From: a virus
Direction: 5' to 3' (one strand)
Virus genome (UHGV): UHGV-1555203
Length of the DNA stretch: 10,147 nt
Shown here: piece by piece, positions 2,929 through 9,319 of the stretch
Numbering within the stretch: the first letter of the stretch is position 1
Layout: the number at the start of each line of letters is the position of its first letter
Position numbers and translations under genes: made by a program
The notes under the pieces: model-generated
Database searches by the model: none
What the model was told of the DNA's origin: nothing
What the model saw: the letters and a program-made list of their open reading frames with translations, nothing else

Positions 2929-3225
2929 TCACTCCTGTTCACTGGCCTCTTTGGCCATCTTCAAATACTGTTCAGGGCAATGCGCCATAACGCGCTGAAA
3001 CAGTTCCAGCGCCAGATTGCGTTGCCCCTCATTAAATGCCATTGCCATAGCGTCCATCGGTGAGATAGCGGAAAACACACGGCCTTTCTCCAGCACCGAC
3101 CAGACAACGCGACGCCCCTGTTCACTGCTCATGACAAAGCGAATGTCATCAATTTCACGCTGTGCCATGTCACGTTGCTTACGGGCGTTTTCTTCTTTCA
3201 GTTGATCGTCTTCGTAATCTGTCAT
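2929..3225 (-). CDS. Hypothetical head-morphogenesis protein (98 aa)
   Basis: ORF-track 2929..3225; its ATG overlaps the portal stop (ATGA overlap at 3222..3225), implying translational coupling. No family recognised. Confidence 0.55.
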   Translation of the reverse strand: MTDYEDDQLKEENARKQRDMAQREIDDIRFVMSSEQGRRVVWSVLEKGRVFSAISPMDAMAMAFNEGQRNLALELFQRVMAHCPEQYLKMAKEASEQE

Positions 3226-5122: not shown

Positions 5123-5190
5123 ATCAATGACTCCGTACGCAATTAAATTATTACCAATTTAACCACATATGATTTATTTATCGTAGGTGG

Positions 5191-5219
5191 TTGACATTTA
5201 ACGCACAAATTATTACCTT
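5191..5219 (+). promoter_or_regulatory. Candidate sigma70-type promoter for the plus-strand cassette
   Basis: Perfect -35 TTGACA (5191..5196), 17-bp spacer, -10-like TACCTT (5214..5219; weak, but T1, A2 and T6 present); embedded in an AT-rich block; inverted repeat TTACCT-TTC-AGGTAA (5213..5227) overlaps the -10. Confidence 0.4.
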
Positions 5220-5549
5220 TCAGGTAACAAAAGAGTTCATTCCGGTTACTAACCTGACTGGCTTGTCGTTAAATTGAACAGGTGGAGTGAGCTTTTATTT
5301 TGAGCAGTACGGCGTATGGCACATGCGCCGATAGCGGTCTGGATACGTTTAAGGGGCACCCTCCCTGGCTGTGGCAAACGAACCAGGTAGCCGGAATGTG
5401 CAAGTCGAGCGGTTTTATTCCGCGCACGGGGATTCACCATCCCGGCGATTCGGTGTGACGCCTCGGAAGAGACGAGGGTACAACGATGAGAGCATTTATG
5501 GAGCCGCGACAAAGTGTGGCGCCTTAACAGGCTAAGTGCTCTCAGCGTT

Positions 5550-5626
5550 GTGGCATTAGCTCAGTTGGACAGAGCAACCGCCTTCTAAGCGGTTGGTCGC
5601 AGGTTCGAATCCTGCATGCCACGCCA
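5550..5626 (+). tRNA. tRNA-Arg, anticodon UCU (reads AGA), 77 nt including encoded CCA
   Basis: Hand-folded cloverleaf: acceptor GTGGCAT/ATGCCAC (7 bp, perfect), D-arm GCTC-AGTTGGACA-GAGC, anticodon stem ACCGC/GCGGT with loop CTTCTAA (anticodon TCT), variable TGGTC, T-arm GCAGG-TTCGAAT-CCTGC, discriminator G, CCA. Close to E. coli argU-type tRNA but with different acceptor and anticodon stems. Confidence 0.9.
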
Positions 5627-5669
5627 GAATCACGCCTAAGGACCGTGATGCCAGAAGTTCCAGGTGCTT

Positions 5670-5711
5670 GGCGGTGATAGTTTCCCTTGAAGGACTATCA
5701 CCGCCCTTTTT
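5670..5711 (+). terminator. Intrinsic terminator downstream of the tRNA
   Basis: Perfect 12-bp stem GGCGGTGATAGT / ACTATCACCGCC with a 12-nt loop, followed by CTTTTTA. Confidence 0.6.
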
Positions 5712-5789
5712 ACAGCAGGACGCCATTGCGATGACTTCATGCTGTAAACCCGTACAGCCACGGAAGGCATAACTCATTGCTTCCAGTTC

Positions 5790-5812
5790 GCCCGGTTCGC
5801 CGGGCATTTTTT
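5790..5812 (+). terminator. Second intrinsic terminator / attenuator hairpin abutting the RBS of the 139-aa ORF
   Basis: GCCCGG-TTCG-CCGGGC (6-bp GC stem, UUCG loop) followed by A-TTTTTT, then AAGGTGAG (SD) and ATG at 5824. Confidence 0.55.
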
Positions 5813-5823
5813 AAGGTGAGATC

Positions 5824-6243
5824 ATGAAGACAATTGATATGTTGGCTAAGTATCTAAATGAATGGCCATTAAAATATTCTCGTATCGTTCAGGCTGAAGA
5901 CTGCATTTTTTATGGCGTTTTTGCTGGTAATGAAATGCATTACGAAGTAATTCAGAGTGAGGGACTGGCCGGGTTAACTCTTAGCGAAGACCATGGTACT
6001 AGCGTTACGTTCCATGACTGGATAACAGCACAACGTTCTGAAATGGAAAAAGGCGATGTTTTTGATATTTCTCGCGCTGTTTACGCTAAAGCAAAAAGTG
6101 ATAATGATTACATGAGCGAACACTTATACAACATGAAGTTACAATGCCTGCATGCGGCGCTTATTCAGAATGGGCACTTCGATAAAACAAGTGCCATCAA
6201 TATTGCGGAAGCCATCAACGCTGGATTTAATGCCATTAAGTAA
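5824..6243 (+). CDS. Orphan hypothetical protein (139 aa), moron-type accessory gene; no family recognised
   Basis: ORF-track 5824..6243; strong SD AAGGTGA 6 nt upstream of ATG; visibly AT-richer than flanking phage genes; opposite strand to all neighbouring genes; followed by palindrome and terminator. No TM segment or catalytic motif evident. Confidence 0.7.
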   Translation: MKTIDMLAKYLNEWPLKYSRIVQAEDCIFYGVFAGNEMHYEVIQSEGLAGLTLSEDHGTSVTFHDWITAQRSEMEKGDVFDISRAVYAKAKSDNDYMSEHLYNMKLQCLHAALIQNGHFDKTSAINIAEAINAGFNAIK

Positions 6244-6247
6244 CACC

Positions 6248-6259
6248 GTGACATGTCAC
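6248..6259. repeat. Perfect 12-bp palindrome GTGACATGTCAC, copy 1 (second copy at 8699..8710)
   Basis: Exact self-complementary 12-mer with shared 5' flank TAACACC; lies 5 nt after the stop of the 139-aa ORF and before its terminator. Confidence 0.8.
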
Positions 6260-6263
6260 AAAC

Positions 6264-6290
6264 AGCCAGCCGATGAGCTGGCTTTGTTTT
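6264..6290 (+). terminator. Intrinsic terminator after the 139-aa ORF
   Basis: AGCCAGC-CGATGA-GCTGGCT stem-loop followed by TTGTTTT; a second hairpin ATCCTC-ATCA-GAGGAT follows at 6291..6306. Confidence 0.6.
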
Positions 6291-6333: not shown

Positions 6334-7809
6334 TTAAGCATATGGATCGTAATCTGTGATGGCCTTGCCTTGCTGGTTCTGCTGCCCGGGAATTCGCAGA
6401 CGCTTCGACACAGGGAACGCAAACGTCAGCAGTAGCGCATCGCCTTTACCAGGAGAACGCCCAAGCCGCTCCTTGATATCTTCCTTCGGTTCGATAACGA
6501 TTTTACCGTCCACTCGAACTTTGTACTCTGCCGCAGACAGGTCGTCCGCTGTTTCCTGGTCATCCAGCATGCCGCCCAGCCTCAGCCATGTCTTGCATGA
6601 GTTGAACATCTCCCCACGCTTGTTGAGCATCTGCGGGTCAGTAGACGCGCCACCGAACGGAACAAGTTGCCATGTACGACCCCAGCCATCACCGATTGAC
6701 TTCAGACCAGTTCCGTAACCGAAGTCGATGAACACTGCGTCAGCCTGGTACTGGTCTTCAAAGTCAGCGATACGCTTCGCCATAATCAGATCGTCAGTGG
6801 TCTTGTTGCCAGTCCACAGCACCTTACTGTGCAGCCCCTGCCGCAGGTATATCACAGCGTCATCAACGCCGGAGTATGCCGGGTCAACGCCGATTATCAC
6901 CGGAGCATGTGCAACCTGCGCAGCGGTTACCACCCGTTTCATTGCCTCGTCAGTAAGGCCGGTAGGGATAAACTGCAATTCAGATGCATCCGGGAATATG
7001 CCGCGCACACGGATTTTAACGAAGTCGCTGTCTTCCCCGTAGTCATCAACCCATTTCTGCAACTGCTGTTTGTTAGTGCCTTCCACCGTCCGGCTGTCAA
7101 TCTGCGCAGTTTTCCAGCGGTGTTTATATTTGCGGAAACATTCGCGAAAACGCCCGGTGTTACGTGTAGGGTTTCCGAACGCCACCCAGATAATCTCAGT
7201 GTCTTCGTCCGTAAGCGCACCCTCAGCAACTTCCCACACCAGATCCGCAATGTTCGACGCTTCATCGAATACCACGATGATGCGTTTGCGCTCGTTGTGT
7301 AGTCCGGCGAATGCCTCAGTGTTGTGCTCAGACCAGGGTATTGCGTCAGCCCGCCACCGCTTGTCGTGCCCAGGGTCATTGCTGTACATCGCGGTAGCGG
7401 TACAGGTAAACCAGTCTTTCGTGATAGCAAGGTTCGACCACTTGATAATTTCCGGCCAGGTCTTCGTTCGTAGCTGGTTGTCGGTGTTGGCGGTCACCAC
7501 GACCTTACAATCCTCGCAAGTGGACATGCCCCAGTTGATCAGCATTGAGATGAATGCGGATTTACCAATACCGTGACCAGAAGCGCGTGCCAACATAAGC
7601 GGCTGATAGCGCGTCTCTGGATTCTGCAGGTGATCACGTATCTCTCGGAACGCATCAGCCTGCCACTGACGTGGGCCGGTAGCATGTGCCAGTTCAGTCC
7701 CCTCTTCCCCCCACGGGAACGCATAGAGGGCATAGCCAAGCGGATCGTGAGTGAACCCTGCAATATCCTCGATTAACTGCTCTTCAGGAGATAACGCTGT
7801 ATCTGTCAC
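6334..7809 (-). CDS. terL: Terminase large subunit (491 aa), GTG start overlapping the terS stop
   Basis: ORF-track 6334..7809; deviant P-loop GHGIGKS, Walker B-like IIVVFDEAS, C-terminal nuclease-type acidic motifs (VIIGVDPAYSG...DDAV); GTGA start/stop overlap with the upstream small subunit gene. Confidence 0.9.
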   Translation of the reverse strand: MTDTALSPEEQLIEDIAGFTHDPLGYALYAFPWGEEGTELAHATGPRQWQADAFREIRDHLQNPETRYQPLMLARASGHGIGKSAFISMLINWGMSTCEDCKVVVTANTDNQLRTKTWPEIIKWSNLAITKDWFTCTATAMYSNDPGHDKRWRADAIPWSEHNTEAFAGLHNERKRIIVVFDEASNIADLVWEVAEGALTDEDTEIIWVAFGNPTRNTGRFRECFRKYKHRWKTAQIDSRTVEGTNKQQLQKWVDDYGEDSDFVKIRVRGIFPDASELQFIPTGLTDEAMKRVVTAAQVAHAPVIIGVDPAYSGVDDAVIYLRQGLHSKVLWTGNKTTDDLIMAKRIADFEDQYQADAVFIDFGYGTGLKSIGDGWGRTWQLVPFGGASTDPQMLNKRGEMFNSCKTWLRLGGMLDDQETADDLSAAEYKVRVDGKIVIEPKEDIKERLGRSPGKGDALLLTFAFPVSKRLRIPGQQNQQGKAITDYDPYA

Positions 7810-8402
7810 TGATTACCATCCTGACGTTCTTTGAGTCGCTTCCTGGCTGCTGCTATGCGATCAGCAATTGTCACATTCACATTAACATCCAGGCGTTCTT
7901 TGAATGCGTTGACGTCGACGTGCTTACCAATCAGTTCGAGGTTCTTCACCTTGTCAGGCCATTTAATTTTTTTGAGGATTGTCTCTATCGAATCCTCGTT
8001 CATGTTCATGATGGTCGATGACAGATCAAAGCCGCTAAGCGTAGTGCGCCAGATTTTCGGCCACTCGCGGATTGGCTTAAGGCTCCCATCGTCGTTGAGG
8101 ATGTCGATCACGTCCATCTGGTCGATCTCCACCAGGCGCATGAGAACGTAATCAGCACTGACGCGCATTCGTTTGTTGCGCTCCTCCATCAACTCGGCAA
8201 TCCGTTTCTGAATGCGTTCATCGCGCATCATGACACTGGCTTTAACTGCCGCTGTATTTGGGGAGAATCCTGCGTTAATCGCAGCCTGAGTCTGATTTTC
8301 AGGCGTTTTGATGTATGACTGGCAATAAGCCTCCTGCATTGCTGTTAGTGGCTTAAATTGCGTTGATTTGCGTTTATAGGTTTTAGGTTCAGCAGGCATC
8401 AT
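7806..8402 (-). CDS. terS: Terminase small subunit (about 198 aa from ATG 8402; track ORF extends to TTG 8480)
   Basis: N-terminal region LTAMQEAYCQSYIKTPENQTQAAINAGFSPNTAAVKAS matches the conserved helix-turn-helix core of small terminases; immediately upstream of and coupled to terL. The TTG-initiated extension (TITTTVTITTVV) is probably untranslated. Confidence 0.85.
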   Translation of the reverse strand: MMPAEPKTYKRKSTQFKPLTAMQEAYCQSYIKTPENQTQAAINAGFSPNTAAVKASVMMRDERIQKRIAELMEERNKRMRVSADYVLMRLVEIDQMDVIDILNDDGSLKPIREWPKIWRTTLSGFDLSSTIMNMNEDSIETILKKIKWPDKVKNLELIGKHVDVNAFKERLDVNVNVTIADRIAAARKRLKERQDGNQ

Positions 8403-8409
8403 AACCACC

Positions 8410-8438
8410 GTGGTAATAGTTACCGTTGTGGTAATAGT
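8410..8438. repeat. Tandem direct repeat GTGGTAATAGT (x2, 18-bp period) immediately upstream of the terS start
   Basis: Exact 11-mer at 8410..8420 and 8428..8438; on the coding strand reads ACTATTACCAC-N7-ACTATTACCAC ending 8 nt before the ATG. Confidence 0.7.
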
Positions 8439-8476
8439 ACCATGCAAAATAAAGCCGCCATAGTTGGCGGCAGTAT

Positions 8477-8710
8477 TCAAAGTCCATCAAATTCATCGTA
8501 AAAACTCTCGTCAAGATACCCTTTCCATTTACCGCGAATGAAAATTACATCCTCGCCGCAAGGGTGCTGACTGTCGATAACTATATCCCTCCTGGCGCAA
8601 CCATACTTATGCATGAGAAATTTAACCTCTTTCGGAAAATTAGCTGAGTTATCTCTCATATCTTCAAGGTCGTAGCGTATTTTTGGCATAACACCTTCGT
8701 GACATGTCAC
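8477..8710 (-). CDS. Hypothetical small protein (77 aa from GTG 8710, or 70 aa from ATG 8689)
   Basis: ORF-track 8477..8710; GTG start overlaps the upstream stop (GTGA), internal ATG at 8689 preceded by AAGGTG; stop overlaps the terS-frame TTG. No family recognised. Confidence 0.5.
   Translation of the reverse strand: MTCHEGVMPKIRYDLEDMRDNSANFPKEVKFLMHKYGCARRDIVIDSQHPCGEDVIFIRGKWKGYLDESFYDEFDGL
8699..8710. repeat. Perfect 12-bp palindrome GTGACATGTCAC, copy 2
   Basis: Identical to 6248..6259 including flank TAACACC (with 3-bp insert TTC); straddles the stop of the 113-aa gene and the start of the next gene. Confidence 0.8.
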
Positions 8711-9048
8711 ACTATTAATTTCGTTTCATGCCAGCCTTTGGTCACCCAGCATTGCGAGTCACCATTACACGGGCATGAATTAACTGGAACTCTCTCGCCG
8801 CACTTACCGCAACGTTTTCTGCTGATCGATTTTATACGCCCGCGCACCCGGGCATCATCCTGGCGGATCAGCAGCGCGATGTACTCGGCCATTTCATAGG
8901 GATCTCGACCAGGGCGCCGGGCGGCGCAGTTCCGCTCCAGCATTTCAATTTCCTGAGCATCAAGCACAATCTCCAGCTTACGCACACCAGATGCAGCTTG
9001 TCTGGCTCTCTGAGCGGCTTTGCGCTCTGCTGCTGATTTAGCCATCAA
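8707..9048 (-). CDS. Hypothetical protein with C-terminal Cys-rich zinc-ribbon-like motif (113 aa)
   Basis: ORF-track 8707..9048; basic/helical N-terminal half, C-terminal CGKCGERVPVNSCPCNGDSQC cluster suggesting a Zn-binding nucleic-acid-binding protein. Family not recognised. Confidence 0.6.
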   Translation of the reverse strand: MMAKSAAERKAAQRARQAASGVRKLEIVLDAQEIEMLERNCAARRPGRDPYEMAEYIALLIRQDDARVRGRIKSISRKRCGKCGERVPVNSCPCNGDSQCWVTKGWHETKLIV

Positions 9049-9319
9049 TATTTACCTTTATCGCGTATACCTTTACCGGTTTATCGCCGAAGTGGGGATG
9101 TGTGATTGTCTTGATTTCATATCCGTCATACGGGACGTCAATTCTACGACTGGAGTCGTCGCGCTTCGGATATCCCTTTGTGATAATCAGTCGGTCATAA
9201 TCCCTGAACATAATTCGCTTATTCCAGTAGTCATTACACAGGCGATACTCTTCCGTTTTCTCTTCGCGAATGATGGCATCGAAGTATTCACCTTTAACGG
9301 CTAGTTGCAGGTTAGCCAC
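9038..9319 (-). CDS. Small ASCH/PUA-like domain protein (93 aa), tentative
   Basis: ORF-track 9038..9319; N-terminal pattern LAVKGEYFDAIIREEKTEEYRLCNDYW resembles the ASCH/DUF3850-type beta-barrel signature from memory; overlaps neighbours in phage style. Confidence 0.55.
   Translation of the reverse strand: MANLQLAVKGEYFDAIIREEKTEEYRLCNDYWNKRIMFRDYDRLIITKGYPKRDDSSRRIDVPYDGYEIKTITHPHFGDKPVKVYAIKVNIDG

Follow-up and report, generated by a model that had tools for sequence, protein, structure and literature searches.

In the 10,147-nucleotide (nt) stretch of virus genome UHGV-1555203 analysed here (the window), a small gene whose product is predicted to join a ribbon–helix–helix (RHH) domain to a zinc ribbon (the RHH-Zn gene) ends inside a 12-base-pair (bp) palindrome, and a second copy of that palindrome lies beyond the terminase genes. 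What ties the gene to the palindrome, and does the pair control the packaging and head genes, as a first-pass annotation had proposed? By its sequence, the window comes from a temperate podophage of the epsilon15/phiV10 type (genus Uetakevirus) and covers the late-gene end of the genome; PAS61, TL-2011b, phiV10 and their relatives show 97–98% identity to it. Our analysis supports the view that gene and site are inherited together as a unit: in most members of the gene family, the stop codon has a copy of the site on it or just after it.

Both palindromes reported by the first-pass annotation are exact copies of the same 12-mer, and the gene's TGA stop does lie within the first (site 1; Table 1). 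The gene is on the minus strand, and the boundary of 8692 that had been given for it merely takes in the palindrome. Eight of the 12 site bases fall outside the open reading frame (ORF), and on the minus strand the site runs straight into the translation start signals of the next gene, its Shine–Dalgarno sequence GAAGGTG and its ATG (8689). The second copy (site 2) stands 4 nt past the stop of a 139-amino-acid (aa) moron gene and 4 nt ahead of a terminator hairpin, and the identity between the two sites spans 14 nt (CGTGACATGTCACA). Scanning the window with at most one mismatch gave three matches to the palindrome against 0.05 expected, a number reached by none of 200 shuffles. The third match, which has a counterpart in phiV10 (at 5306) that likewise carries one mismatch, is probably a chance occurrence and no functional site. 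The terminator adjoining site 2 serves both TerL and the convergent moron gene and is annotated as a terminator in phiV10. The other, on the minus strand, divides TerS from the early-right operon, of which the RHH-Zn gene and a 70-aa ORF form the end, and falls within the over-extended TerS ORF as listed. A sigma-70-like promoter was sought on the minus (late) strand near sites 1 and 2, and none was found.

The same arrangement recurs in other Uetakeviruses. The stop codon of the orthologue overlaps the same 12-mer in Tyrion and SPN1S; in phiV10, where the counterpart is PhiV10p55 (annotated as similar to epsilon15p49), the 12-mer on the stop has one mismatch (GTGACATGTTAC) and spans the junction of the circular genome. 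Among 80 close loci from IMG/VR, 76 have the site at position -1 relative to the stop; of the 80, 49 have flanks of the phiV10 type and 23 of the window type. Two further copies occur at conserved places in each of phiV10, Tyrion and SPN1S, one by the TerL terminator, where the reverse-strand morons start, and one between the last structural gene and its terminator. The equivalents of site 2 (phiV10 2262, Tyrion 2702, SPN1S 2174) have differing reverse-strand genes beside them. In these three genomes and the window, the recurring order is stop codon, 0–7 nt, site, 0–4 nt and terminator stem; the extra Uetakevirus sites are thus at gene 3′ ends beside intrinsic terminators and not at promoter positions. 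SPN1S also carries a one-mismatch copy (26722–26733, GTGACATGTCAT) on the TGA stop of an Rz-like spanin gene that closes the lysis cassette, and hence at an operon 3′ end.

Two features of the deposited genomes concern the palindrome itself. The linear Tyrion genome is opened exactly at its centre (41755–41760 plus 1–6) and that of phiV10 within it (39101–39104 plus 1–8), which is probably an annotation convention, the circle being cut after the last gene. The match between phiV10 and the window breaks at 8498–8706, and comparison of phiV10 1–40 with window 8477–8706 shows the 70-aa gene reduced to a deletion remnant (ATGCATGATGAATTTGATGGGTTTTGA) with the same C-terminal DEFDG. We therefore ruled out the palindrome as an insertion scar of the 70-aa gene, as phiV10 has an internal deletion remnant with the same C-terminal codons.

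The pairing of gene and motif, with the stop either overlapped or closely followed, extends across podophages, myophages and siphophages, down to about 33% protein identity. As read from these sites, the generalised motif is GTGAC-N2-GTCAC, with invariant arms and a free centre. Pectobacterium myophage ZF40 (69% protein identity) has an exact site 2 nt past the TAA stop of its gene, Pantoea myophage AH07 (58%) has GTGACCTGTCAC, with one mismatch, on the TGA stop, and N15 has GTGACTGGTCAC on the TGA stop of gp46 (35%), directly followed by the Shine–Dalgarno sequence of the next gene, with a second identical copy inside repA. Metagenomic relatives of about 33–35% identity have GTGACAGGTCAC on the stop or GTGACGGGTCAC 2 nt past it; in the individual metagenomic loci the site overlaps the stop (L089 and L091) or comes 2–3 nt after it (L090). 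Overall, the site is at position -1 in 21 of 37 distinct family genes. Each gene-carrying genome or locus has one to three copies, compared with 0.01–0.05 expected, and only the N2 spacing is enriched, arms at N1, N3 or N4 being essentially absent from these genomes. Lambda, which is without the gene, has zero N2 sites. A restriction or methylase site was ruled out, the motif being over-represented rather than avoided and 12 bp long; the sites of CRP, FNR and SlmA are unsuitable in spacing or inner arm bases and were dropped.

The association also holds in reverse. IMG/VR was scanned for pairs of N2 sites no more than 30 nt apart, which returned at least 120 loci; among those listed, a family member or its RHH domain is encoded in 32, never more than 1 kb from the sites, and in 17 of these 32 the 3′ end of the gene is within 5 nt of a site. 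The N3-spacing control, run over the whole of IMG/VR, gave 21 pair loci, with the gene in none of them.

The ORF with a basic helical N-terminal half and a C-terminal Cys cluster is real, as borne out by the ORF listing, an AlphaFold2 model and conservation across the family. Although it is listed as 8707..9048 on the minus strand, with a TTG start and 113 aa, the actual start is likely to be the ATG at 9045..9043, giving 112 aa, because nearly all of the 702 homologues have that length. This ATG overlaps the stop of the ASCH-domain gene (ATGGCTAA; 9038–9045), an overlap that suggests translational coupling of the two genes in the early-right operon. The protein matches PHROG 536 over its full length (E 5.6e-55, residues 2–112 against profile positions 2–114 of 115), a group whose name, ‘transcriptional regulator’, is a label annotated by inference. 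The family is small: at 50% identity, exhaustive searching with HMMER yielded no more than 160 cluster representatives. Searched against Pfam, the window protein had zero matches at E up to 0.1, and 56 family members gave scattered marginal matches, 2 of the 56 touching RHH_5 and RepB-RCR_reg (E 0.013–0.028). The single window-protein sequence had no match in the PDB, and Foldseek of the predicted structure against the PDB returned nothing significant.

Structure prediction, which the first-pass annotation had put forward as a check, gave a clear outcome. The AlphaFold2 model, for which 56 diverse family members served as input (mean pLDDT 91.5), has a helix at residues 5–19, an extended segment, a helix at 30–42, a long helix at 52–75, a zinc knuckle and a short C-terminal helix. 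It thus predicts an RHH DNA-binding fold, including the beta–alpha–alpha arrangement and the dimer-pairing N-terminal strand of the CopG/Arc/MetJ proteins. In this model, an Arg/Lys-rich helix leads into an RHH domain in the N-terminal half, and the zinc ribbon, appended at the C terminus, is probably not the DNA reader. The Cys4 cluster noted earlier (CGKCG...CPCNGDSQC) is present, with its ligands now refined: C79 and C82 are invariant, C99 is found in at least 90% of sequences and C91 fits the family ‘GC’ consensus, which points to C79, C82, C91 and C99 (CX2C-X8-C-X7-C) as the zinc ligands and to C93 as lineage-specific.

Conservation within the family also bears on how the site would be read. 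Five residues of the DNA-binding half (R8, K9, Q12, R13 and R15) stand out as its best conserved, and all are in the helix at 5–19; at least 90% of family sequences keep R8 and R13. Across the 37 distinct family genes, the helix motif xAERKxAQRxR is kept, the beta-strand is variable and the central dinucleotide of the site varies even among sites beside the same protein. The combination of a conserved helix, a variable strand and a free centre fits helices that read the arms and a beta-ribbon that lies over an unread centre. In the same 37 genes the arms are invariant, with no covariation, and the RNA form of site 1 is a hairpin of only 4 bp whose local fold is not significant (z -1.2). The palindrome is therefore best taken as a double-stranded DNA element rather than an RNA structure, and the RNA-hairpin reading of it was rejected on the shortness of the hairpin and the non-significant fold. 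One metagenomic locus (L192, 541–819) encodes a 58-aa relative made up of the RHH domain alone (MTAKTQAERKAEQRKRLADAGLTRLELW...), without the zinc ribbon; it ends in a GTGACCGGTCAC site (816), with three further sites upstream at a 23-nt spacing (142, 165 and 188). That a zinc-less relative has such sites suggests that the basic helix and the RHH domain are the part that reads them.

Taken together, these data support the protein–palindrome link well: as predicted from sequence and model, the protein very probably binds DNA sequence-specifically, with the palindrome very probably as its cognate site. The general idea that a DNA-binding regulator acts through the palindromes thus stands, on the RHH fold, the site that travels with the gene and the N2-specific reverse association; the packaging and head role attached to it does not, as discussed below. 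The fold and the short symmetric DNA target are shared with RHH repressors of the CopG/Arc/MetJ group (Arc, Mnt, CopG, AmrZ, omega and toxin–antitoxin antitoxins). The omega repressor reads 7-bp WATCACW heptads, the core of which resembles the GTCAC arm. In contrast to these repressors, the phage protein adds a C-terminal Cys4 zinc ribbon and a preceding conserved basic helix, and its hallmark site is at the 3′ end of its own gene and not in a promoter. What is predicted here is thus an RHH regulator that carries a C-terminal zinc ribbon and has its hallmark site, with the arms of matS (below), on its own stop codon. In the literature searched, no paper contained the 12-mer, and nothing relevant on the RHH-Zn family came to light.

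Table 1. Positions of the palindrome copies, terminators, genes and protein segments in the window
Feature	Position	Strand	Remarks
Site 1, palindrome GTGACATGTCAC	8699..8710		Contains the TGA stop of the RHH-Zn gene (8709..8707)
Site 2, second exact GTGACATGTCAC	6248..6259		Beyond TerL, at the TerL/moron convergent junction
One-mismatch copy GTGCCATGTCAC	3162..3173		Inside a coding region; one arm defective
Intrinsic terminator AGCCAGCCGATGAGCTGGCT then TTGTTTT	6264..6283	plus	Fold -15.5 kcal/mol, z -2.3
Intrinsic terminator GCCGCCAACTATGGCGGC then TTTATTTTG	8454..8471	minus	Fold -16.2 kcal/mol, z -4.0; 0/200 shuffles as good
ASCH-domain gene	9038..9319	minus	Upstream neighbour of the RHH-Zn gene
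RHH + zinc-ribbon gene, stop codon included	8707..9045	minus	112 aa; alternative TTG start 9048
N-terminal basic helix, residues 5–19, AAERKAAQRARQAAS	8989..9033	minus	AlphaFold2 model and conservation
Ribbon–helix–helix core, residues 20–75	8821..8988	minus	Predicted strand ~22–28, helices 30–42 and 52–75
Cys4 zinc ribbon/knuckle, C79-x2-C82-x8-C91-x7-C99	8749..8811	minus	Family conservation
70-aa gene	8477..8689	minus	Flanked by site 1 and the 8454..8471 terminator; PHROG 1541 (function unknown)
TerS	7806..8480 (annotated)	minus	Probable true start ATG 8402
TerL	6334..7809	minus	
139-aa moron ORF	5824..6243	plus	PHROG 4846 (function unknown)
tRNA-Arg(TCT)	5550–5626	plus	In the moron island

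We tentatively favour, with somewhat less than even confidence, a model in which the RHH-Zn protein binds GTGAC-N2-GTCAC at the ends of transcription units and acts there as a boundary or roadblock together with the adjacent terminators, and not as a promoter activator. The order of site and terminator, the terminator ahead of TerS and the failure to find a promoter near the sites argue for boundary control rather than promoter activation. The early-right operon would yield the protein as its final product, and one RHH dimer would sit on the dyad, its N-terminal helices reading the GTGAC arms and its variable beta-ribbon passing over the unread centre. The dimer might read the DNA as MatP does, with helix and strand in the major groove. 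Occupied sites would be the gene's own 3′ end, upstream of the pre-TerS terminator, the TerL/moron junction and, outside the window, the end of the structural operon. Bound protein and intrinsic terminators would then together set how much transcription passes between modules, the step from early operon to packaging genes among them.

Several observations weigh against this model. Outside the Uetakeviruses the extra sites are not consistently beside terminators and have no single common context; some are within genes (N15 repA, the AH07 Q-like gene, and ZF40 gp08 and gp12), and in Vibrio phage K233 two of the three sites (8620 and 23220) each precede a start codon, in one case that of TerS, by exactly 31 nt, and so are in 5′ and not 3′ positions. 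A roadblock at site 2 would also impede read-through from TerL to the portal gene unless there were a separate promoter, and none was found. Binding itself is predicted from co-occurrence, and the model assigns the zinc ribbon no role. Finally, 88 of the 120 N2-pair loci listed are without a detectable family gene; these are GC-rich, and some are beside inovirus Zot-like ATPase genes. The motif may therefore have further users, either other proteins or relatives that escaped detection.

When ORFs ending in paired sites were clustered, the only genuine clusters were the RHH-Zn family and the Zot-like ATPases; the remainder was noise, because the site contains TGA. In a group of loci that includes L098, L107, L112, L118 and L147, pairs of GTGACGCGTCAC or GTGACTAGTCAC, 28–38 nt apart, are found 4–7 nt past the stops of ORFs of 360–450 aa. 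The ORFs of about 360–400 aa in L098, L107 and L112 make up the Zot-like ATPase cluster, in GC-rich contigs that are apparently from filamentous phages, and the 440-aa ORFs of L118 and L147 are in none of the clusters. No RHH-Zn family member was detected in loci of this type, where the user of the motif may be a different binder or a relative that has diverged beyond detection.

The main rival to boundary control has the opposite sign, that is, read-through or antitermination. The protein would be the late-gene switch of epsilon15-like phages; from the palindrome just ahead of the packaging operon it would activate a late promoter or mediate Q-like or otherwise factor-dependent antitermination at the pre-TerS terminator, and it would do likewise at the other sites, with a long late transcript running across the moron islands. 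We regard this as unlikely, although the layout of the window speaks for it: like Q in lambda, the gene closes the early-right operon, with a terminator and the late genes coming directly next, that terminator lies between the gene and TerS, and every site, followed in the direction of the gene beside it, comes before an intrinsic terminator. Lambda Q binds DNA and contains zinc. The annotations of phiV10, Tyrion and SPN1S name no product as an antiterminator or late activator, a statement about annotation only, as no homology test for a Q-like protein was made. A literature search found no account of the mechanism of late-gene timing in epsilon15/phiV10-like phages; a study of regulatory proteins in Uetakevirus ZX5 covers only the repressor, the antirepressor and the integrase.

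Against a late switch, the gene and site coexist with Q-type regulators, away from the late genes, in other phages. The late activator of N15 is gp40, whereas gp46 is among the early-right accessory genes; in AH07 the gene and site close a leftward early operon just ahead of xis/int, and the phage encodes its own Q-like antiterminator (AH07_52 versus AH07_31). The ZF40 gene is 9 kb from the terminase gene, and in a P2-like Yersinia phage the gene comes after gpA, outside the late-control region. These four phages contradict control of packaging and head genes as the role of the family. Within the window, transcription in the late direction would reach the TerL terminator before site 2, the reverse of what antiterminator loading calls for, and promoter-like hexamers were not found near the sites. 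A Uetakevirus-specific effect on entry into the late operon is possible, more plausibly through termination or read-through than through promoter activation.

Nor do known late regulators offer a relative. Neither Pfam nor PHROG gave an antiterminator match, so the resemblance to lambda Q is one of position and not of homology, and the sites are not embedded in a promoter. With Ogr, Delta and B of P2, P4 and 186, the protein shares small size, a Cys4 zinc motif and a dyad-symmetric DNA motif, but no homology backs the analogy with zinc-finger late activators drawn at first: Pfam matched the window protein to no Ogr/Delta, Q or other activator family, the Ogr_Delta domain is not among the families most matched by the 56 members, and the zinc motif is C-terminal to the RHH domain and probably not the DNA reader. 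Ogr-type sites, TGT-N12-ACA, are at about -55 of late promoters; the phage site is instead a compact 12-mer at gene 3′ ends and not upstream of late promoters.

The C-terminal half weakly resembles the zinc finger of TraR/DksA, factors that bind in the secondary channel of RNA polymerase (RNAP), a point in favour of the late switch. Shared features are a long helix followed by CxxC...C, the motif ‘...LP/IPE...G..C’ and a short C-terminal helix. The family profile matched TraR (E 0.04) and YbiI (E 0.06) only marginally in a PDB hmmsearch, and hhalign to TraR gave a probability of 69–73%, which stayed at about 73% when the family alignment was used and is a lead only. The ligand pattern differs (CX2C-X8-C-X7-C here, CX2C-X17-CX2C in the TraR sequence used, with the fourth Cys displaced), there is no acidic helix tip, and the long helix belongs to the RHH core. 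The RHH-Zn protein has no match to the DksA/TraR family PF01258 in Pfam and no structural match to these proteins.

The second rival likens the pair to MatP and matS: the protein would use a few dispersed sites to mark, bridge or compact phage DNA, or would interfere with host readers of GTGA...TCAC, rather than regulate particular promoters, and we hold this to be somewhat less probable again than a late switch. matS, the target of the Escherichia coli RHH protein MatP, is a 13-bp element, GTGAC[AG]N[TC]GTCAC, with the very arms of the phage site (PMC3116907, PMC3603311). The helix just ahead of the MatP beta-strand enters the major groove together with that strand (PMC8669397). In both systems, an RHH protein is paired with a few dispersed sites and not with promoter operators; two or three dispersed copies per genome, some of them intragenic, are more typical of genome marking than of operators. 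However, the phage site is strictly N2, with a free centre, in contrast to the N3 (RNY) centre of matS (consensus GTGACATTGTCAC), from which it differs by the loss of one central bp, and paired sites 21–38 bp apart in many loci resemble ordinary operators. The predicted structure is without the four-helix bundle and coiled coil of MatP and has the zinc ribbon instead. Homology to MatP was rejected despite the identical arms, hhalign giving a probability of 0.2%. With neither a detectable sequence relation nor these structural elements, we treat the resemblance as a shared recognition mode and not as family membership.

A third possibility is that the palindrome is independent of the protein, as a 3′-end or module-boundary element (a terminator cassette, a moron recombination linker, a packaging signal or the target of a host protein), its adjacency to the gene reflecting shared ancestry. 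The Uetakevirus sites do coincide with mosaic junctions where neighbouring genes differ, the phiV10 and Tyrion genomes were deposited opened at or within the palindrome, one K233 site is 31 nt upstream of TerS, and most paired-site loci listed are without a family gene. We nevertheless judge such independence improbable, because the linkage survives in unrelated architectures down to about 33% identity, with invariant arms although 8 of 12 bases are non-coding, and the reverse association is strong and spacing-specific; the presence of several copies per genome, far from the terminase genes in ZF40, AH07 and N15, argues against pac or cos. Least probable of all, and barely credible, is that the protein binds a GUGAC..GUCAC hairpin in its own mRNA by the downstream ribosome-binding site and controls translation or stability in the manner of Mu Com: the Shine–Dalgarno sequence directly after the site in the window and N15 and a basic protein with a zinc ribbon would suit this, but the weak hairpin, arms that are invariant instead of covarying, the predicted RHH DNA-binding fold and the other site copies, which are not beside a ribosome-binding site, all argue against it.

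The moron island (5140–6243, plus strand) lies in opposite orientation between TerL and the portal gene, and after it come the portal, scaffold/protease and capsid genes in the late direction (minus strand). It contains a TTGACA-like hexamer near 5190, a strong terminator at 5670–5705 and about 300 nt of unassigned sequence (5250–5550) for which Rfam gave no match, and its content varies among phiV10, Tyrion and SPN1S. The N-terminal extension of the listed TerS ORF to TTG-8480 is probably spurious, because Tyrion TerS has 197 aa and the Pfam match begins only at residue 45. Within that extension, between the pre-TerS terminator and the probable TerS start, are two exact 11-nt direct repeats, GTGGTAATAGT (8410–8420 and 8428–8438, 18 nt apart; ACTATTACCAC when read on the minus strand), which could be a candidate binding site for a late activator or for terminase (pac).

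For the biology of these phages, the analysis turns the label ‘hypothetical protein/transcriptional regulator’ into a concrete hypothesis of one protein, one 12-bp site and three terminator-side positions per genome. Epsilon15/phiV10-like phages include prophages of E. coli O157 and Salmonella, and the module is also present in N15-like, P2-like, ZF40-like and Vibrio phages, the family comprising about 160 clusters at 50% identity. More speculatively, and at a probability that we put no higher than that of MatP-like marking, gene and palindrome may be a portable phage counterpart of MatP/matS, in which the 12-bp spacing would escape host MatP, one site would stay on the gene's own stop, dispersed sites would mark, bridge or insulate segments, and the zinc ribbon would serve as an interaction module, possibly contacting RNAP through a TraR-like surface. 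If so, it would not be a promoter regulator but would represent a new class of cis-linked phage boundary element. The matS arms and the one-base difference in spacing offer a natural system for asking how RHH proteins measure the distance between half-sites, and N2 versus N3 spacing bears on whether phages avoid or mimic the chromosome-organising sites of their hosts.

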